Source: a bacterium (GTDB taxonomy: Bacteria; UBA8248). Taken from it: a stretch of 64,000 nt of DNA. Both the position numbers and the translations under genes were made by a program. How positions within the stretch are numbered: position 1 is the stretch's first letter; each line of letters opens with the position of its first letter. The DNA is taken from positions 3,808,001 to 3,872,000 of the forward strand of contig OZ253442.1 of assembly GCA_965261085.1 (NCBI GenBank). The letters run 5' to 3'. The notes under the pieces were generated by a model that had not been told where the DNA came from, searched no databases, and was given only the letters and a program-made list of their open reading frames with translations. Shown here one piece after another: positions 3,473 through 63,488 of this stretch.

Positions 3473-4570
3473 TCAAGCGGGTTGCGGTGTTGGTGAGAAT
3501 AACAAGTGATAACAAATAGATACGAGACTTTTGAGCACGTGGAAATCCCCGTATGTTGCACAAGAGTGGCGGAGGTCATGGAGGCGAACGCCGTCAAGGC
3601 CCGCGTGCGTGCGGACGGTCCGCCAGGCGTCGTCCAGCTTCCTGAGGTGCGTGCCCGGTTTCCTGCCGGGGATCACCCAGGGGCTGCCGGGCAGGCGCGG
3701 GAGAGCGGCGAGAAGCTTGACCACAGGCTGTGAGAGCGAAACGACCCGCGCGCCCGTCTTGGAGTCCGCGAGCCGCAGTTCCGCTTGATTGAGCGCCACC
3801 TCCTCCCAGCGCAGCGTGAGGATCTCCGATTTCCGGCACCCGGTCAGGATCAGGAGCTTGATGGCGGCCACCGCGCTCGCCGACGCGCCGCCCTTCGCCT
3901 CCGCCTCGTCCAGGGCGCGTCCCAGACGCACGAATTCCGACTCGGTGAGGAAGCGCTCCCGCCTGCGGCCGGGGTATTCGGAGATGGCGCGGCAGGGGTT
4001 TGATAATCCGTCAGGCGCCAGTTCCCAGCTCTCAGCCAGTTTGTACATCGCGGACAGCGCCCGGACGGCCTGGTTCGCGGCCGCGGGCGTCGCGCGCAGC
4101 CGCTGGTGGAGTTCCACCACGTGTTTGCGCCCGACCGACGCGAGGGGCAGCTTTCCCAGCGCCGGCACGATGTGCTTGCAAACCACGGAGCTGACCGTCT
4201 TCACGGTGCGCGGCTTACAGCGCACGGAGACGTATTCGGCTAGATAGCGCTTCGCGAGCTCGGCCACCGTGGGACCGCCTGCGGGGTTGAGTGGCTTGGG
4301 CACAGCCTCCTCGCCCGCCTTGATCCGCGCGATGACGAGCGCCGCGCGCTTGCGCGCCTGATCGGCATGTATCACCCCGTGGCGGCCCACCGCCACGCGC
4401 CTGGGGCCTCCCGGCCCCCGCGCCTGGGCGACGTACACCTTGGCCCCCGTGGGATATACCCGCACCCCGAAGCCGGTGAGGTCGCGGTCCCAATACACGG
4501 TGTCCTTCTCGACCGTTAGTTTCGTGACCGCGCGGTTCGAGAGCGTTTTCATCGTGGGCTTCGTCGTCAT
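3473..4570 (-). pseudogene. Tyrosine recombinase (arm-binding-domain integrase), C-terminally truncated after HDLRHS
   Basis: N-terminal arm-binding domain (WDRDLTGFGVRV), TGCRKSE, DSKTG and HDLRHS are present. An unrelated tail (CATYGDFHV...) follows and lacks the LGH...T.RY catalytic His/Tyr segment found in the neighbouring paralog. Confidence 0.8.
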
Positions 4571-5748
4571 CGCTCCATCCTCCCGTTCACGACGTGGACG
4601 CCGATGCTCTCGCCTACACGGGCGGCCGCCGCCTTCTCGGCGTCTCGCATCAGGTGTGCGTAGCGCGCCGTGCTCACCACGTGGCGGTGGCCGAGCAGCC
4701 TGCCGATCGCCGATAAACTCTCGCCGAGCGCCAGCGCCCGCGATGCGTAGCTATGTCTCAGGTCATGGATTCGTACATCGTCGAGCCCCGCCCGCTCCCT
4801 CACGGCCCCCCAGTAGTAGGAGAGGTTCCCCAGGCGGTTCTTCCCGTACCTTGAGGGGATCACCCAGGAGTTGTCCGGCGAGCGGGGGACCTCCTCCAGC
4901 ACCCTCTTGACGGGCGCCGTGAGCGGAACCATCCTCGGTCCCGCCTTGGCGTCCCTGAGCCTGAGCTCCCCCGCCGTGCGGTCCACGTCGTCCCACCTGA
5001 GGTCCAGTATCTCGCTCCGCCTGCACCCGGTCAGGGCCAGGAGCCTGATCGCCGCCACCGCAGGCGTCCACGTCCTCTCCTCCGCCTCCAGGTCACGGAG
5101 CGCGCGGCCCAGGCGGCGGAATTCCTCTTGCGTCAGGAACCGCTCCCGCTTACGCGTCCGGAAGCGGCGCACCGCCCGGCAGGGGTTCTCCCCGGGCGGG
5201 AGCAGGTCCCACGCCTCGGCCATCTTGAACATTTTAGAGAGTAGCCCCAGGGCCGCGTTGGCCACGGCGGGCGTCGCGCGGAGGCCGTGATGGAGTGCGG
5301 CGACCTCCGCCCGGCCGACCTCTTCGAGCGCCGTACCGCCCAGCGCAGGCTCGATGTGGTTCTCTAGCAAGGAGCGGTACGTCCTGGCGGTGTCGGGCTT
5401 GCAGTGCGTCCCGACGTGGTCGCTCATGAAACGCTCGGCAAGGCCCGCCACGGTGAGTTCCGCCTCGGGCGGCTTGGGCTCGGGCTCCTCGCCCCGCTTG
5501 ATGCGGTCGATGACGAGTGCGGCTTGTTTCCTCGCCTCATCGCACGACAACTCGCCGTGTTTGCCCAGCGTCACGCGCTTCGGTCCCCACGGACCCCGGG
5601 ACTGCACCACGTAGACCTTCCTGCCCGTGGCGTAGACCCGCACCCCGAAGCCCGCCAGCTCCCGGTCCCAGAAGACGGCGTCGTTCGTCTCGACAGATAG
5701 CGCGTCGACTACGCGTTTGGTAAGCTTGCGTTCGCTTCTTTTCGGCAT
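4567..5748 (-). CDS. Tyrosine recombinase/integrase with arm-binding domain (complete)
   Basis: WDRELAGFGVRV, TGCRRSE, DAKAG, HDLRHS and LGHRHVVSTARY (full R-K-H-R-H-Y set); ATGA overlap with the downstream paralog. Confidence 0.93.
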   Translation of the reverse strand: MPKRSERKLTKRVVDALSVETNDAVFWDRELAGFGVRVYATGRKVYVVQSRGPWGPKRVTLGKHGELSCDEARKQAALVIDRIKRGEEPEPKPPEAELTVAGLAERFMSDHVGTHCKPDTARTYRSLLENHIEPALGGTALEEVGRAEVAALHHGLRATPAVANAALGLLSKMFKMAEAWDLLPPGENPCRAVRRFRTRKRERFLTQEEFRRLGRALRDLEAEERTWTPAVAAIRLLALTGCRRSEILDLRWDDVDRTAGELRLRDAKAGPRMVPLTAPVKRVLEEVPRSPDNSWVIPSRYGKNRLGNLSYYWGAVRERAGLDDVRIHDLRHSYASRALALGESLSAIGRLLGHRHVVSTARYAHLMRDAEKAAAARVGESIGVHVVNGRMER

Positions 5749-6286
5749 GGGCGCTCCCTGAAAATCGTGTCACGGGCCTGAGGATATGGACGATCCGTAA
5801 TCAATACGCATACGTCCGGCATCAAACGTGCGTCCATTAAAGCGTAAATCTGACGTAAATGCAAGGGGAGGCGAAAAAGAAAACATGATAATTATCGCTT
5901 TTAATACAGCGATTTATCGTGCTTGAGGGTATCCGGTAGTACGATTGTCCATGGGACGGAATTATTAACGCGTCTTTCGATAAATTAACGGCTATTTATT
6001 TTCTTCGGAAATGACGCCGCCGAAATGCGGCGCAGGGGAATTCTGCCATGGACAGCTACTCCTGCGATGACGGAAAATGCGCGGATTTGCGGGGAGTTGC
6101 AGTGGGGATATTCCCCCGGGCGCAGCGACCGGTTTTCATTTTTTCCATAGGGGATATCACATTTAATTTCAATTGCTTAGATGGCATCGTCCCACCGGCG
6201 CGCATCATGCCCGTGGCGAGGCGACCCGATTTGGTGATATAATACTGGAATCATTACCGAGAGTTTCCAGCATAGAGGACATCGCA

Positions 6287-6928
6287 ATGCCCAGACGCCA
6301 TAAGGTGCGTAAATTCAAGCCCTATCTCATGCGCTACCTCCATTCCGACGACCCGAACTTCGAGCCCGTTCTCCACGATCTGCTCGAACACGAGCACGAG
6401 GTGTATGACGAGAGCACCGTCGGCGAGGGCGCGGAGGTGACGCGCGGAGAGAGGCTTTCCCATATGTGGCACGTTGTTTTTACTGAACTTACCGACATTC
6501 TGACCCCGTTCCACATCGAGCAGCTTTTCGAGCGCCTGGAGAAGGACTTCTCCGCCAAATGCCGGATTCTGCGCGAGATGTCAGGCCCCCAGCCGGTGGA
6601 AAAAGAGCCCGAATTCAGGCATTACCTCATGCGCTATCTCCAATCCAACGACCCGAACTACGAGCCCGTGCTCAGAGATTTGCTCGAACACGAACACGAG
6701 ATCTACGACGCCATGTCGGCAAGCGAGGAGACGGATTTTCAGCGCGGAGAGAGCGGAACGCCCGCCTGGCAGGCGGTCCATGGCCAACTCTCGAAAGTCG
6801 TTTCGCCCGAGCAAATCAAGGAGCTATTCGACAAGCTGGAACGTGATTTTTCAGTCACTTGCGAGCTTTTCCACGAAATGGCCGAGGCCGAAAAACTCAT
6901 GCAGGAAGAAGAAGGTGGGCCCGGCTAG
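6287..6928 (+). CDS. Hypothetical protein made of two tandem ~100-aa homologous domains
   Basis: ATG 6287 with AGAGGA RBS. Repeats YLMRYLHSDDPNFEPVLHDLLEHEHEVYD..W..V...L..LFERLEKDFS..C and YLMRYLQSNDPNYEPVLRDLLEHEHEIYD..W..V...L..LFDKLERDFS..C. Confidence 0.85.
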   Translation: MPRRHKVRKFKPYLMRYLHSDDPNFEPVLHDLLEHEHEVYDESTVGEGAEVTRGERLSHMWHVVFTELTDILTPFHIEQLFERLEKDFSAKCRILREMSGPQPVEKEPEFRHYLMRYLQSNDPNYEPVLRDLLEHEHEIYDAMSASEETDFQRGESGTPAWQAVHGQLSKVVSPEQIKELFDKLERDFSVTCELFHEMAEAEKLMQEEEGGPG

Positions 6929-59153: not shown

Positions 59154-59681
59154 TCAAGCGGATTGAACTGGGTGGAGGTATTTTTCCCATGCATGCTGCA
59201 CTGTTCGAGGAAACCGATGGTTCAGGTGCTGCAATATGAACGATTTTGGTTTTCGGGGCTGCTTGTTCAGCTTCAGGCCCGCCTCATCGGGCGTGCGGTC
59301 TCCTTTTTTCGCATTGCATCTCCGGCAACTGCAAACCGCATTCTCCCATGTGGAGCGGCCGCCACGGGAACGCGGCAACACATGATCCACCGTTAAATAT
59401 CCACCTTTCGCACCGCAATACTGACAGGTGTTCTCGTCGCGACGCATCACATTTTTTTTACTGAACGGAATCTGGCTTCGGCGAGGAACATATACATACG
59501 TTCTCAGCCGTATGACGGCGGGGAGGTGAAACTCCATCGCCTCGCTCCGGACGATCAGGCCATTCGTCTCGATGGTATCCGCTTTTCCGGTGATCATCAT
59601 GCGAATCGCACGACGAGCGTTGCAAACATTTATCGGCTCATATGTATGGTTGAGCACCAAAACACGCGATTGCTCGATCAC
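59154..59681 (-). CDS. HNH endonuclease (McrA/HNH_5-like)
   Basis: VLVLN..YEP, RRD..TCQYCG, TVDHVLPRSRGG..TWEN...C..CN..KG. Confidence 0.9.
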   Translation of the reverse strand: MIEQSRVLVLNHTYEPINVCNARRAIRMMITGKADTIETNGLIVRSEAMEFHLPAVIRLRTYVYVPRRSQIPFSKKNVMRRDENTCQYCGAKGGYLTVDHVLPRSRGGRSTWENAVCSCRRCNAKKGDRTPDEAGLKLNKQPRKPKSFILQHLNHRFPRTVQHAWEKYLHPVQSA

Positions 59682-59780
59682 CCTATACGCTCCCCTTGAA
59701 ACAAGTGGGCGACGGGATACAAACCACTATTTGCGCATCCCTTTATGTAGACCTCGCCTGTCCTTGTCAACGAGCAATCG

Positions 59781-59972
59781 TTTTTTTCAGACATTGCGAA
59801 ACCGACCTCGCAAATTTATAATGGTCGGTCTTCGCCAAACGGCGAAGAAACGCCTCACGAATTCATCTCTCCAAAGAGGAAAACCCCGTTGTCGCCCCGT
59901 TCCGGACGCGGAAGAATAATCCTCCTCACGCTAGGCGCCCTGGCCATTGCTTGCGGACTGGGTATCGGCGCG
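59781..59972 (+). repeat. Direct repeat copy 1 (192 bp): PBP1A promoter plus first 28 codons
   Basis: Aligns ungapped with 61158-61349 (offset 1377), 10 mismatches by manual count. Confidence 0.95.
59794..59822 (+). promoter_or_regulatory. Sigma70-type promoter TTGCGA-N17-TATAAT with overlapping palindrome TTGCGA-N8-TCGCAA (copy 1)
   Basis: Read directly; boxes identical at 61171-61199. Confidence 0.7.
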
Positions 59973-59990
59973 TTAGGAACGCAGTGTTAG
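59889..59990 (+). pseudogene. Truncated 5' fragment of the PBP1A gene (33-aa ORF, TM anchor only)
   Basis: TTG start with AGGA RBS; MSPRSGRGRIILLTLGALAIACGLGIGA followed by LGTQC* from inserted DNA. Confidence 0.8.
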
Positions 59991-60101
59991 ATATAGTTGA
60001 CCGAATATCCCCAGATCATTACATTGGCACAAGCTGGCAATAATCTACGGCAACCATTCAACGCCCACAAAGGAGTGCTGGGAAATCACAAGGAGTATAA
60101 A

Positions 60102-60362
60102 ATGGAGTACCATGAAGTAAATATCCCCATCCCAAACAATCCTCCCATCAAGGGATTAGATATTCCTATCGACAATTCTAATGAGAAATTCAATGAATAC
60201 ACATTGAATGATGGAACAATCTTGCGGGTCAAATTAGTTATTTCTGCGGTTATAAGAGCAAATGACCAATGGGACACAGAAGGGCATCCAATATACACCA
60301 TCCTAAGCCATAATGTCGTTCGCGTAGTGCAATCACACCCATCACTCCGGCAAAGAAGATAG
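60102..60362 (+). CDS. Hypothetical small protein (86 aa), first gene of the islet cassette
   Basis: AAGGAG RBS; E.FNEYTLNDGTILRVKLVI..V.R...WD.EG.PIY, apparently beta-rich; no function recognised. Confidence 0.75.
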   Translation: MEYHEVNIPIPNNPPIKGLDIPIDNSNEKFNEYTLNDGTILRVKLVISAVIRANDQWDTEGHPIYTILSHNVVRVVQSHPSLRQRR

Positions 60363-60367
60363 GTGAG

Positions 60368-60757
60368 ATGAAAATAACTATTGAGTATCCTTCAGGCATA
60401 GAACAGAATGGTTGGGAAAAATGGACGACCCAAAAAGAAAAATCTGATGAACCAACACGTTCATGTTTCCAAATCGAAGTAGGGGAAGCGCCTCTTGGGA
60501 ATGGAGATTTTATTAATCCTAAATCACCACCCCTCATATTCTATTTTTTCTCAAATGATGAAAAGCCTTATTATGAAATAGAGCATGAAGAATTGAATAT
60601 CTCCGTTTATGGGGATAGCTTGAAAGAAATAGAGAAAATGCTCTACGAGGAAATAGCGTTTTTGTGGGAATCTTATGCTTTAGAAGATGACGCGAATATG
60701 ACCTCTGCTGCTCAAGAATTAAAGAAGCGTTTACTCGAAACATTTAAAGTGAGCTGA
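60368..60757 (+). CDS. HicB-like antitoxin-fold protein
   Basis: YEIEHEELNISVYGDSLKEIEKMLYEEIAFLWESY resembles the HicB partial RNase H fold (G.S/T.EEA...); acidic; no obvious C-terminal DNA-binding domain. Confidence 0.6.
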   Translation: MKITIEYPSGIEQNGWEKWTTQKEKSDEPTRSCFQIEVGEAPLGNGDFINPKSPPLIFYFFSNDEKPYYEIEHEELNISVYGDSLKEIEKMLYEEIAFLWESYALEDDANMTSAAQELKKRLLETFKVS

Positions 60758-61041
60758 TGGCGCAACGTGAAAGCAGGGTTATTAAAAGTCAACTATCTCG
60801 AAAAGGTTTTCAGGAAGACGATAGACACCACGTCTACCTCACTTACAAGACCTTGGACGGCAAAAAATCAGATATCAAAACAAGACTGAGTCAGGGCAGC
60901 AATGAAACTATCCAAACGCGCCTGCTGGGTAAAATGGCCCGACAATGCCATTTGAATATCAACCATTTTTTAAGGCTGGTCGATTGTGATATGGAGCAAG
61001 ATGAATACGAACAACATCTCAGGGACAACTACAAAATCTAG
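60757..61041 (+). CDS. HicA-like mRNA interferase-fold protein
   Basis: L.RKGF...D.HH.Y....DGK.....T..S.G...I...LL.KMARQC.L....F; dsRBD-like HicA pattern; TGATG overlap with the upstream gene. Confidence 0.62.
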   Translation: MAQRESRVIKSQLSRKGFQEDDRHHVYLTYKTLDGKKSDIKTRLSQGSNETIQTRLLGKMARQCHLNINHFLRLVDCDMEQDEYEQHLRDNYKI

Positions 61042-61090
61042 TCGACGTCATTGTAGCACCGCACGTCGACCTGGTCCCGATTTCCTCTCC

Positions 61091-61147
61091 TCTTAGTTTG
61101 GATCTGGCCCTCCTCTCGCTCGGTGGAGGGCCAGATCCAGACTGAGA
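61091..61147 (+). other. 23-bp stem hairpin (two G-U pairs, 11-nt loop) at the islet 3' end
   Basis: TCTTAGTTTGGATCTGGCCCTCC / GGAGGGCCAGATCCAGACTGAGA. Confidence 0.8.
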
Positions 61148-61157
61148 CACTACCTGC

Positions 61158-61349
61158 TTTTTTCCAGACATTGCGAAAAGGGCGTCGCAAATTTATAATG
61201 GTCGGTCTTCGCCAAAGGGCGGAGAAACGCCTCACGAATTCATCTCTCCAAAAAGGAAAACCCCGTTGTTGCCCCGTTCCGGACGCGGAAGAATAATCCT
61301 CCTCACGCTAGGCGCCCTGGCCATCGCTTGCGGACTGGGTATCGGCGCG
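61158..61349 (+). repeat. Direct repeat copy 2: functional PBP1A promoter and 5' end
   Basis: See copy 1. Confidence 0.95.
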
Positions 61350-63488
61350 AGCCTTAGTTATCTATACGATTTTCCCGAACTCGAGCGGCTCCAGAATTAT
61401 AAGCCCAACACCATCACGCGCATTTACGCCCGCGGGGGAGAACTTCTCGCGGAACTGTACCAGGAAAGAAGAAAGCCCATACCTTTGAAACAAATCCCCA
61501 CCACGCTGCGCCAGGCGTTCCTGGCCATAGAAGACAGCCGCTTTTATGACCATCCGGGCGTCAGCTACCCGGATATTTTTCGGGCGTTCATCAAGAACCT
61601 GAGCGCGGGCCACTTTGTGCAGGGGGGCAGCACCATTACCCAGCAATTGGCAAAAGTTCTCTTTTTGACGCCCGAGAGAAAACTCAAGCGAAAAATACGG
61701 GAAGCGTTTCTCGCCCTCGAGATTGAGCGACGCTTCACGAAAGATGAAATACTCGAATTTTATATGAATCAAATCTATCTCGGCGGCGGGGCGTACGGGG
61801 TACAGGCGGCGGCCCAAATCTATTTTGGAAAAACGGTCGCTCAACTCACTCTGGCCGAATCCGCCATGATTGCAGGACTGCCCAAAGCTCCTACGCGATT
61901 CAGCCCCAAAACCAACCCCGAGAAAGCACTGAAACGACGTAATCTGGTAATCCAGAGGATGCTGGCTTCGGGGTTCATTACCGAGGAACAAAGAAAAATA
62001 GCTCGCGAAGAACCGATCCAACTGGTTCCCAGGGTGACCAATATCGCGCCCGAAGCCGCCTATTTCATCGAGAAAACCCGCCTCAGCCTCAGTCGCCGGT
62101 TTGGGCAATCCCTGTATAAAAGTGGCCTGCAAATTCATACGACCGTTGACATCGGTTTGCAGAAAACCGCTCACAAAGCGCTCATCAACGGAATCAAGAA
62201 AATTAACCAAAGACGCGGGTTCATGAGTCCCGGAACAAAAATCAAGAGGCCGCCGCGCCTGGGGGATGGATTCCAATTTCACATTCTGGACATCACCGCG
62301 AAGATGGTGAGCGGAATTATCGGGGACTATGAAGTGGAAATGCCTCTTCCCGGACACATCGACCCCAAAAGGCTCAGAGAAGGCGATCTTCTTTTGGGGC
62401 GCGTGATCAAAGTGGATCGCGCTTCTAAAAAACTTTTTCTGGAATGGCAAGAGACCGTGCAAGGCGCCGTCATCGCGTTCGACTCCCAAACCGGAGCGCT
62501 CCGCGCCCTGACGGGTGGAACCAACTTCCGCCGCTTCCCGTTCAACCGCGCCACCCAGGCGCGGCGCCAGCCGGGTTCGGCTTTTAAGCCCATCATCATG
62601 GGGACAGCCCTGTCCCAGGGTTACACGCCCGCGCACATTCTCATGGATACCCCCTTCGTCCGCCGTATGCCGGGCACGCTCAAGGATTGGAAACCCAGAA
62701 ACTACACCAACAAATTCTATGGCCCCGTCACCATGAGACGAGCCCTGGAATCCTCACTCAACCTGGCCACCATCAAGCTGCTGGACCAGATGGGCCCGCA
62801 AAAAGCGATCACGTTCGCGCATCGGCTCGGCATCCGCTCAAAAATGAACCCGTATCTCTCCCTGGCGCTCGGCTCCATCGAGGTGACGCCGTACCAGTTC
62901 ACGGCTTCATACATTCCATTCGCCACGCGGGGCGTATATGCGCGGCCCTATGAAATCACAAGAGTCACCGACGGAAGAAACCGGGTGCTGGAGGAAAACG
63001 TTCCCACGACGCATCTCGCCATCGCGCCCGAGACGGCCTACCAAATGAAAATGTTGTTGCGCGGCGTCATCACGAATGGAACCGGAAAAAAGGCCAAAAA
63101 GATCGGCGCCTTCCTGGCCGGAAAGACAGGCACCACGAATGAATACCGGGACGCCTGGTTCATCGGTTTCTCGGAGGACCTCGTCTTGGGAGTCTGGGTG
63201 GGCCGTGACGATAACAAACACATGGGCTACCGGGCTTCGGGCGGAAGCGCGGCCTTGCCCATATGGGTCGAAGTGATGAAAGGCTGGTTCGAAGGCAGGG
63301 AGTCAACAGTGCGAATTCCCGAACCGCCACCCGGCATTACCCTCGTGAAGGTGGATTCGCGATCCGGCCATTTGCCGTCCACCTGGTGTGCGGGTGAACC
63401 GATACTGGAAGCCTTTGTGGAGGGAACGGAACCCTCCGAGCAGTGCGCTCAGAAATCCCGCCTGCCGGCGATATTGAGCGGTGGTTGA
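61266..63488 (+). CDS. mrcA: Penicillin-binding protein 1A (class A, transglycosylase-transpeptidase)
   Basis: EDSRF, GGSTITQQLAK, RKIRE, YMNQIYLG; SAFK, SLN, KTGT. Confidence 0.93.
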   Translation: MLPRSGRGRIILLTLGALAIACGLGIGASLSYLYDFPELERLQNYKPNTITRIYARGGELLAELYQERRKPIPLKQIPTTLRQAFLAIEDSRFYDHPGVSYPDIFRAFIKNLSAGHFVQGGSTITQQLAKVLFLTPERKLKRKIREAFLALEIERRFTKDEILEFYMNQIYLGGGAYGVQAAAQIYFGKTVAQLTLAESAMIAGLPKAPTRFSPKTNPEKALKRRNLVIQRMLASGFITEEQRKIAREEPIQLVPRVTNIAPEAAYFIEKTRLSLSRRFGQSLYKSGLQIHTTVDIGLQKTAHKALINGIKKINQRRGFMSPGTKIKRPPRLGDGFQFHILDITAKMVSGIIGDYEVEMPLPGHIDPKRLREGDLLLGRVIKVDRASKKLFLEWQETVQGAVIAFDSQTGALRALTGGTNFRRFPFNRATQARRQPGSAFKPIIMGTALSQGYTPAHILMDTPFVRRMPGTLKDWKPRNYTNKFYGPVTMRRALESSLNLATIKLLDQMGPQKAITFAHRLGIRSKMNPYLSLALGSIEVTPYQFTASYIPFATRGVYARPYEITRVTDGRNRVLEENVPTTHLAIAPETAYQMKMLLRGVITNGTGKKAKKIGAFLAGKTGTTNEYRDAWFIGFSEDLVLGVWVGRDDNKHMGYRASGGSAALPIWVEVMKGWFEGRESTVRIPEPPPGITLVKVDSRSGHLPSTWCAGEPILEAFVEGTEPSEQCAQKSRLPAILSGG

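Follow-up and report, generated by a model that had tools for sequence, protein, structure and literature searches.

The 64,000-nucleotide window analysed here (the whole stretch; contig OZ253442.1, positions 3,808,001 to 3,872,000, GTDB lineage UBA8248) belongs to a genome assembled as a single contig of 4.27 Mb, called G000 below. Between an HNH endonuclease gene and mrcA, the gene for the class A penicillin-binding protein PBP1A, the window contains a small islet (59781–61349) in which two imperfect copies of the mrcA promoter and 5' end bracket three small genes, the cargo. We conclude that the islet is probably an insertion-duplication produced by general recombination, homologous and illegitimate, at a variable spot of the chromosome, and not an autonomous or site-specific element. 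Read in this way, it offers a natural example of foreign genes taken up before, and even inside, an important cell-wall gene without loss of that gene: the incoming DNA would supply a new promoter and 5' end, leaving the old promoter to drive the newcomer. It also carries a caution for annotation, in that direct repeats that restore a 5' end do not on their own indicate a site-specific element.

We searched 40 related genomes with the HNH-to-mrcA stretch and dissected the matches piecewise; 22 of these genomes are of the same genus as G000, giving a genus set of 23. For evidence from sequencing runs we used assembled Logan contigs of public runs aligned to window positions 59300–61800, a region present in runs of eight studies, sponge metagenomes among them.

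Anatomy of the islet

Copies A (59781–59972) and B (61158–61349), both on the forward strand, form the single direct-repeat family of the islet; they are 192 nt long, spaced by 1377 nt and 94.79% identical (10 mismatches, ~95%). An earlier note on this DNA, made from the letters alone, had described the repeat in these terms, over promoter, ribosome-binding site and first 28 codons, and every figure in it was reproduced exactly. In both copies the aligned homology begins at the T-run that precedes the −35 box and runs as far as ...ATCGGCGCG; a TTAG that follows a gap of 4 nt, and might pass for further homology, was put down to chance. Each copy contains a σ70-like promoter, TTGCGA-17-TATAAT (10/12 matches; 59794–59822 in copy A, 61171–61199 in copy B), a leader hairpin, a GAGGA ribosome-binding site and a TTG start with 28 PBP1A codons. 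Copy B now serves the intact mrcA gene (61266–63488, forward strand; 740 aa; Pfam Transgly 7.3e-70, Transpeptidase 1.5e-28). Copy A is an orphan directed into the cargo.

The coding part of copy A survives as a remnant open reading frame (ORF) of 33 aa (59889–59990, forward strand), made up of the PBP1A N-terminus (28 codons), five cargo-side codons and a stop. Its counterpart in the related genome G012, translated by eye from an alignment row, has 18 codons before its stop; the peptide itself is thus not conserved. A 20-nt junction filler (59973–59992) separates copy A from the part of the cargo shared with G012; it is 0.41 identical to G012 compared with 0.71 for the next 109 nt.

The DNA between the copies (1185 nt) has a G+C content of 33–45%, compared with 52–60% in the flanks, and holds three ORFs on the same strand and a palindrome with 23-nt arms, in agreement with the low-GC interior, three small genes and long hairpin first noticed in the sequence. 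No meaningful family match was found for ORF1–3 in Pfam, NCBIfam, PHROGs or PADLOC, and no recombinase or transposase family was among the matches; the lack of an integrase that the earlier note had remarked on is borne out, both in the islet and beside it.

The architecture, copy A–cargo–copy B, recurs in two further independent assemblies (G008 and G012), and two of the three assemblies are single-contig chromosomes. Each of the four junctions (HNH|A, A|cargo, cargo|B and B|mrcA) is bridged singly by contigs from public runs of four studies; none of those contigs spans both copies. An assembly artefact that merged two strain variants of the mrcA upstream region could account for copies that differ by 5%, as strain variants might, and it could find some comfort in one run (X8) in which the cargo contig has a depth of 26 compared with 50–58 for its flanks. 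The half depth in X8 suggests co-existing strains with and without the cargo. Given recurrence in independent assemblies, bridged junctions and cargo genes that are under purifying selection (see below), mis-assembly is an unlikely source of the structure, and we assign the merging of strain variants almost no probability. A contig from X8 that joins 59777 to 61143 was considered as an empty site and rejected: the 1365 nt that it skips do not match the 1377-nt spacing of the repeat, and one of its sides is just 23 nt long.

The mrcA leader contains an 8-bp hairpin just after the predicted transcription start (59829–59848 in copy A, 61206–61225 in copy B). Its pairing is kept through two-sided changes in other species (e.g. 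G012, G011 and G013), and it may be a conserved 5' stem-loop.

A recombinational hotspot between the HNH gene and mrcA

The left neighbour of the islet is a divergently oriented gene for an HNH endonuclease of 175 aa (59154–59681, reverse strand; Pfam HNH 9.3e-15, HNH_5 4.3e-14), which adjoins mrcA in the genus genomes at 72–96% nucleotide identity. It is followed by a conserved spacer (59682–59780; 79–97% identical in relatives) whose right edge is the insertion point for all cargos of the genus. At this boundary the same cargo, between two copies, is present in two of the 22 relatives (G008, cargo 96% identical; G012, 87%). In 12 of 22 there is no insert, and the HNH-side block lies directly against a single promoter block (G001, G002, G003, G004, G006, G011, G013, G016, G017, G018, G019 and G022). 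Four of 22 carry unrelated DNA there (G015, 1.26 kb; G010, 1.86 kb; G021, 5.8 kb; G014, 6.27 kb). The interval is interrupted by a contig break in one genome (G005) and is too diverged for scoring in three (G007, G009 and G020).

In all four genomes with unrelated DNA, the foreign sequence starts no more than ~5 nt from window position 59780/59781 and runs to where the promoter block begins, exactly the point at which copy B starts in G000. Between them the four inserts code for an inverse-autotransporter-like barrel, an Ig-domain protein, a TbpB-like protein and a ClpP/SDH-like protease fragment, and none of the 26 ORFs scanned in them has a recombinase or transposase domain. The HNH|promoter boundary is therefore a recombinational hotspot, variable in the genus, as the earlier note had proposed. 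The same comparison does not favour its further idea of a discrete cassette that targets the PBP1A gene: inserts of the genus begin at the boundary between the HNH block and the mrcA-promoter block, so the PBP1A coding sequence is not their common target. A literature search limited to open papers found no description of the site.

One insert of ~6 kb is common to G014 (L023 1625–7896) and G021 (L024 2076–7899), although rpoB does not group these genomes as sisters. Its genes specify an inverse-autotransporter-like beta domain, a Big_9 Ig-domain protein and a TbpB-like lipoprotein. These two genomes are 94.0% identical over the HNH side and insert and 89.7% identical on the mrcA side, the pattern expected from exchange by flanking homology.

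Some genomic islands restore the 5' end of the gene they enter. SXT/R391 elements at prfC and dusA-specific islands do so; they encode tyrosine recombinases and use short, defined att cores. The islet resembles them in that its target receives a new promoter and 5' end with the inserted DNA: an intact mrcA follows copy B, and the promoter part of copy B in G012 is foreign to its clade (see below). It differs from them in having no recombinase in the cargo, in a homology that is long and imperfect (192 nt at 95%; 116 nt in G012) with no short fixed att core, and in variable breakpoints, and we rejected a site-specific island of this type. A decayed remnant of a larger integrase-bearing island, once integrated in the mrcA 5' end, would have the precedent of the prfC and dusA islands. 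No relative carries an integrase at the site, the largest inserts (~6 kb, G014 and G021) have genes only for inverse-autotransporter-like, Ig-domain and TbpB-like proteins, and the repeat is long, imperfect and of variable length; we consider such a remnant very improbable.

Another likeness is to the microcin H47 island of E. coli, which, in the excerpted text of PMC3191183, is a small island with extensive imperfect direct repeats and no recombinase of its own. As described in that excerpt, the H47 island differs in size (13 kb, compared with 1.4 kb for the islet) and in that it was shown to excise and integrate, and did so in a host with defective homologous recombination; the islet copies, by contrast, bear signs of homologous exchange.

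Origin of the two copies

For gain or loss, the comparison of G012 with its empty sister G011 is decisive. We built an rpoB tree of 21 genomes (G016 and G022, whose rpoB is split over pieces, were omitted). On it G000 and G008 are sisters (100/100), and G012 is sister to G011 (100/100, 99% identical) in a clade that also includes the empty G003; the cargo label requires at least two changes. G012 and G011 are 96.2–96.7% identical over 7–9 kb on each side of the site and differ there by 1292 nt and a 116-nt duplication. Over its first 75 nt, the single copy of G011 is 0.97 identical to copy A of G012 and 0.64 identical to copy B, compared with 0.84–0.97 for this segment in other close pairs. 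The first 75 nt of G012 copy B find their best match (0.80) in promoters of the G013/G017 type; from nt 75 on, copy B is 0.92–0.97 identical to G011, like other close pairs among themselves. The foreign part of copy B is thus limited to ~75 nt, which fits a crossover inside the promoter block. The simplest history, as read from these alignments, would be that the G012 lineage gained the cargo together with a foreign mrcA promoter, and that the native promoter and first ~8 codons were left upstream as an orphan.

The opening 75 nt of copy A in G000 have an identity of 0.96 to the one copy in the empty G006 and of 0.97 to both G008 copies. The spacer between the −35 and −10 boxes of copy B is of the type of G005, G021 and G011, unlike the copy A/G006 type. 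These matches suggest that copy A is the resident and copy B the incoming copy in G000 as well. The view that the downstream copy supplies a replacement promoter, put forward when the repeat was first noticed, accordingly stands for G012 when compared with G011 and is suggested for G000 by the spacer type; likewise, copy A is the one closer to the orthologous allele in G012, and the distinction is weaker in G000.

The breakpoint within mrcA differs between the two lineages. The repeat ends at codon 28 in G000 and G008 (192 nt) and at about codon 8 in G012 (116 nt). After copy A come 20 unshared nt in G000 and G008; in G012 there are 125 nt at this place, unmatched elsewhere in the 23 genus genomes. 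The copies also exchange sequence after they arise: A and B share genome-specific substitutions in G008 and again in G012, and copy B of G008 is a mosaic, overwritten by A type. Direct repeats do not accompany related cassettes elsewhere: bracketing repeats of at least 30 nt were found at none of the 11 other loci with cassettes headed by the ORF1 family (one has a 34-nt repeat pair, wholly upstream of the cassette), so the duplication is not a property of the cassette.

A single ancient insertion-duplication, inherited vertically, would have the empty genomes arise by repeated precise pop-out losses between the copies. The divergence of the cargo does follow that of the flanks (for G008, 96% compared with 95–96%; for G012, 87% compared with 86–88%), and the synonymous divergence (pS) of the cargo between G000 and G012 (0.25–0.26) is close to that of the mrcA 5' end (0.31). 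The copies demonstrably recombine, and pop-out would restore a normal single copy, indistinguishable from a site that was never occupied. Such a history would nonetheless need several independent losses, since G012 is nested among the empty G011 and G003. In G011 the bases remain of the copy A type right up to the final bases of the 116-nt homology; had this genome lost the islet by pop-out from an ancestor like G012, the crossover would have had to fall at the extreme edge of that homology. Copy B of G012 begins with 75 nt that are foreign to the clade of this genome, and the A|cargo junction of G012 is unlike that of G000 and G008. We hold one ancient event followed by losses to be an unlikely history.

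An origin by general recombination would proceed as follows. In a donor strain, the three-gene module would lie directly upstream of the donor mrcA promoter, at the same HNH|promoter boundary. DNA comprising the cargo and the donor mrcA promoter and 5' end would enter a strain with an empty site and recombine by homology inside the promoter/5' mrcA segment, and its other end would be joined within the first codons of the resident mrcA. This could take place through a Campbell-type single crossover of a circularised fragment, the route exploited in insertion-duplication mutagenesis, or through homology-facilitated illegitimate recombination (HFIR). The product would be copy A, the orphan (the resident promoter with a 5' stub), then the cargo, then copy B (the incoming promoter joined in frame to the resident gene). 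The mrcA gene would remain intact and expressed, and the orphan promoter would read into the cargo and may express it. Since only insertions with a working promoter and an in-register 5' end keep mrcA functional, selection would explain why the islet survived. Later, gene conversion would act between the copies, the cassette would spread among strains through ordinary flanking homology, and the HicBA-like gene pair of the cargo (see below) might have a stabilising role.

Events of this kind have been characterised in the laboratory. In the excerpted text of a study of E. coli conjugation (PMC3240628), 56 of 60 recombinants yielded a PCR product that signals a duplicated homologous locus, and 14 sequenced recombinants had duplications of 109–950 bp flanking the integrated DNA, ascribed to a single crossover with a circular molecule; true HFIR was rarer in that work. 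The islet is like these Campbell-type insertion-duplications (PMC3240628, in the same excerpt) in that heterologous DNA lies between direct duplications (100–1000 bp there) of the one shared chromosomal segment, and in that no dedicated recombinase is needed; there, the length of the duplication equals that of the homologous fragment carried. Unlike the laboratory cases, the islet is natural and comes from uncultured bacteria, the duplicated segment is a promoter and 5' end such that the gene stays functional, and no circular intermediate was seen. The trait common to Campbell-type and HFIR products, a resident-like and a donor-like copy side by side, is present in G012 and less marked in G000.

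HFIR has been invoked for orphan immunity genes and orphaned Rhs tips (PMC5361080, in the excerpted text). Orphan arrays of this kind, such as type VI secretion system effector-immunity arrays and the orphan tips of Rhs and contact-dependent inhibition systems, resemble the islet, as far as the excerpt describes them: a conserved segment anchors the incoming module, which displaces the resident version; this survives alongside as an orphan, and the site is a hotspot of swapped cargo. The islet is the mirror image, its anchor being the promoter and 5' end of the downstream gene and its orphan lying upstream, and it carries a toxin-antitoxin-like module in place of a polymorphic toxin tip. Duplications can also arise, by interchromatid integration, when cells are transformed with partly repeated DNA (PMC3784515, excerpt). 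An argument for natural transformation from the presence of DprA and a ComEC-like ORF below its cut-off was set aside as too common to count.

Several points weigh against an origin by general recombination. The presumed donor arrangement (HNH block, cargo and promoter without copy A) was found in none of the 23 genus genomes. Two lineages both hold the duplicated form, with no clean two-sided replacement, which chance illegitimate events do not predict. The assignment of copy A as resident and copy B as incoming in G000 depends on 7 differing bases only, and the synonymous divergence of the cargo fits one old event with losses too. The comparison covers one genome per species and has assembled contigs as its material. 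Finally, the ends of the hotspot inserts are alike in inverted orientation (4 of 25 left-versus-right comparisons at shuffle p ≤ 0.003), and short G(G/A)TTTT strings occur on both sides of the G014 and G015 inserts; these features hint at a transposon-like or palindrome-based mechanism, which general recombination does not need.

A further alternative takes the islet to be a self-sufficient, homology-driven cassette that uses its piece of target promoter and 5' end as a portable attachment site. RecA-dependent pop-out would release a circle of ~1.4 kb (1377 bp in G000, 1408 bp in G012), re-entry would occur by a single crossover at mrcA, and the HicBA-like pair would keep the cassette in place. 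Were this true, the shared inverted termini and the decaying palindrome described below would mark a fragile site open to new cargo. We judge such a self-sufficient cassette quite unlikely. Recombination between the repeats had also been put forward in the earlier note: the exchange of sequence between copies, seen in the shared substitutions and the mosaic G008 copy B, supports it, but neither an excised form nor an in-register empty junction was found in the public-run contigs aligned.

The three-gene cargo and the insert ends

The cargo has a promoter-like site of its own, TTGACC-17-TACATT (59997–60025, forward strand; 9/12 matches), and cargo homology with G012 starts at its −35 box. All three genes lie on the forward strand. 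ORF1 (60102–60362, 86 aa) belongs to a small family of unknown kind. ORF2 (60368–60757, 129 aa) is a putative antitoxin, like the HicB N-terminal domain over residues ~53–125 according to structural matches. ORF3 (60757–61041, 94 aa), whose start overlaps the ORF2 stop by 1 nt, is a divergent HicA-like putative toxin. The ratio of nonsynonymous to synonymous divergence (pN/pS) between G000 and G012 is 0.10–0.26 over the three ORFs (0.10 for ORF1, 0.26 for ORF2), and as judged from these substitution patterns the cargo is one conserved three-gene module under purifying selection.

ORF3 has no match in Pfam at E ≤ 1 except an unrelated one at 0.16, and PF07927 (HicA_toxin) is not matched. A profile search of 1.84 billion representatives with ORF3 gave 1250 clusters at E ≤ 1e-3, and 28 of the 98 aligned relatives match PF07927 (best 5.8e-6); this toxin-like family is thus large and lies mostly below Pfam thresholds. 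The model of ORF3 [predicted local distance difference test (pLDDT) 71.6] has the order helix, three strands, helix. Its best structural neighbour among 48,161 chains compared with VIA-align is 1whz_A, at a low Z of 4.6 [root-mean-square deviation (rmsd) 3.6, 64 aligned], and the HicA chains 6g26_E, 5yrz_D and 4p78_D score Z 2.8–3.4, also low. The ORF3 family profile gave nothing significant against PDB sequences (best E 0.047, unrelated), and Foldseek found no match in the PDB below E 0.29 for ORF3 or 0.40 for ORF2.

The AlphaFold2 model of ORF2 (pLDDT 63.9) has a disordered stretch of 31 residues at its N-terminus and two helices after the HicB-like domain at its end. Seven of the top 22 chains found with VIA-align are HicB-like antitoxin domains, with weak Z scores of 3.5–4.7 (3k6q_A, Z 4.7; HicB 6g1c_V, Z 3.8; also 1wv8, 2dsy, 6g1n, 6u0i and 2yzt). 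A Pfam scan found no C-terminal DNA-binding domain of the ribbon-helix-helix or helix-turn-helix type in ORF2. A model of the complex of ORF2 (residues 30–129) with ORF3 predicts that the two proteins bind: the ipSAE is 0.80 (median of three runs) compared with 0.00 for the best of three controls, the partner has a pLDDT of 86 or more, and no fewer than 96% of contacts agree between runs. The mark reached by this pair was also reached by 116 of 157 solved complexes and by 2 of 215 mismatched pairs, and because HicAB complexes have already been solved, the pass may reflect likeness and not binding.

In type II HicAB systems hicA usually precedes hicB. The cargo is like them in the overlap of the ORF3 family with Pfam HicA_toxin, the HicB-N-like domain of ORF2, the overlapping genes, the small size of the proteins and their predicted binding. 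It is unlike them in that the antitoxin-like gene comes first, ORF2 shows no DNA-binding domain, the pair has a further conserved gene (ORF1) ahead of it and the window proteins fall short of the threshold of every curated family. The description of the cargo as a divergent HicBA-like, toxin-antitoxin-like pair with an extra first gene holds, and the toxin-antitoxin-like character suspected from the sequence alone is upheld by the HicA_toxin matches of ORF3 relatives, the ORF2 structure and the predicted pairing. The islet thus draws attention to a module in which a small protein of unknown family (ORF1) goes with a divergent HicB/HicA-like pair.

A scan of genome contigs for the cargo elsewhere returned only the two genomes already known, and scans of metagenome contigs returned no match. 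G010 has a diverged version of all three genes, with their order kept (64%, 42% and 45% amino acid identity), ~3.5 kb downstream of mrcA and beside an AbiEii/AbiEi pair; no direct repeats of at least 30 nt bracket it. Here, past the far end of mrcA, G010 (L040) has another variable region: the AbiEii/AbiEi pair is at 3567–5350, and a GC-rich 565-nt segment with 21-nt inverted repeats (90% complementary) at its two ends, at 5806–6412, sits just before the diverged cassette.

The ORF1 family comprises 9 clusters and heads other three-gene cassettes in the phylum; the first gene is common to them and the partner genes are swapped. In a second kind of cassette the ORF1-like gene is followed by genes for a protein of 143–184 aa and one of 139–156 aa, the latter a DUF7689 protein in G021 and G032. 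A cassette of the second kind is also present in the G000 genome (1798843–1800064; L099 1468–2689), and others are at L098 and L090–L093.

At its 3' end the cargo contains a long imperfect palindrome (61091–61147; 23-nt arms, 11-nt loop; RNA fold −47.3 kcal/mol, z −7.6). When the genomes are compared, the z-score of the fold is −6.8 in G000, −3.2 in G008 and −0.5, i.e. gone, in G012; the fold decays in this order, and the palindrome is not a conserved recombination site. A search of Rfam gave sub-threshold hairpin noise only. The 11-nt loop is exactly reverse-complemented in G008 (L033 ~4096–4166) compared with G000 and G012, a hairpin-loop inversion.

The right end of the cargo (terminal motif at 61142–61157) has ~20 nt in common with the right ends of the unrelated G010 and G015 inserts. 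A 13-mer within it (61142–61154) occurs 3 times in the genome, compared with ~0.1 expected per strand. The shared ends could stem from an old intergenic palindrome split by successive cargos or, as another possibility, from a transposon-like ancestor. In its strong form, the interpretation of the earlier note makes the islet a discrete minimal cassette, or one of a family with conserved ends, that carries its own target promoter and 5' end and was placed by a recombinase or transposase encoded elsewhere. Such a cassette would accommodate at least five different cargos at one insertion point within ~5 nt, the inverted likeness of insert ends, the likeness of right ends, the G(G/A)TTTT strings flanking two inserts and the recurrence of the 13-mer. 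What speaks against it is, to begin with, the lack of an enzyme: neither the three cargo ORFs nor the 26 scanned in the other inserts have a recombinase domain, no integron integrase in the genome exceeds the cut-off (best TIGR02249 match 84.4 bits, cut-off 265), the Y1 (HUH) transposase family PF01797 has no match there, and the nearest tyrosine-recombinase-like match in the window (~4636–5331) is 55 kb away. These searches identified no recombinase able to act on the islet in trans, the route of mobilisation that the earlier note had entertained. The G015 insert end has no other significant copy in 23 genomes, and terminal repeats are not within the top 5 of an ungapped inverted-repeat scan; a multi-copy element with terminal inverted repeats was accordingly not found. 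The decay of the palindrome in G012, the variable in-gene breakpoint (codon 28 or ~8) and the absence of bracketing repeats at the 11 related cassette loci add to these difficulties, and we consider placement of a discrete cassette in trans improbable. A hotspot served by homologous recombination is the part of the earlier interpretation that fits best.

Two known classes of element were also rejected. The attC sites of integron gene cassettes have boxes of the form RYYYAAC/GTTRRRY; none was found by eye in the palindrome, and the integrase match lies below cut-off. An IS200/IS605-type element or a palindrome-associated transposable element (PATE) was rejected with no Y1 transposase in the genome and with a single hairpin, at the right end only. 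The other two sites of the right-end 13-mer are at genome position 2802175 (L100 ~2976), where it overlaps the stop codon of a 263-aa ORF, and at 3243505 (L101 ~3006), where it comes directly after a small hairpin.

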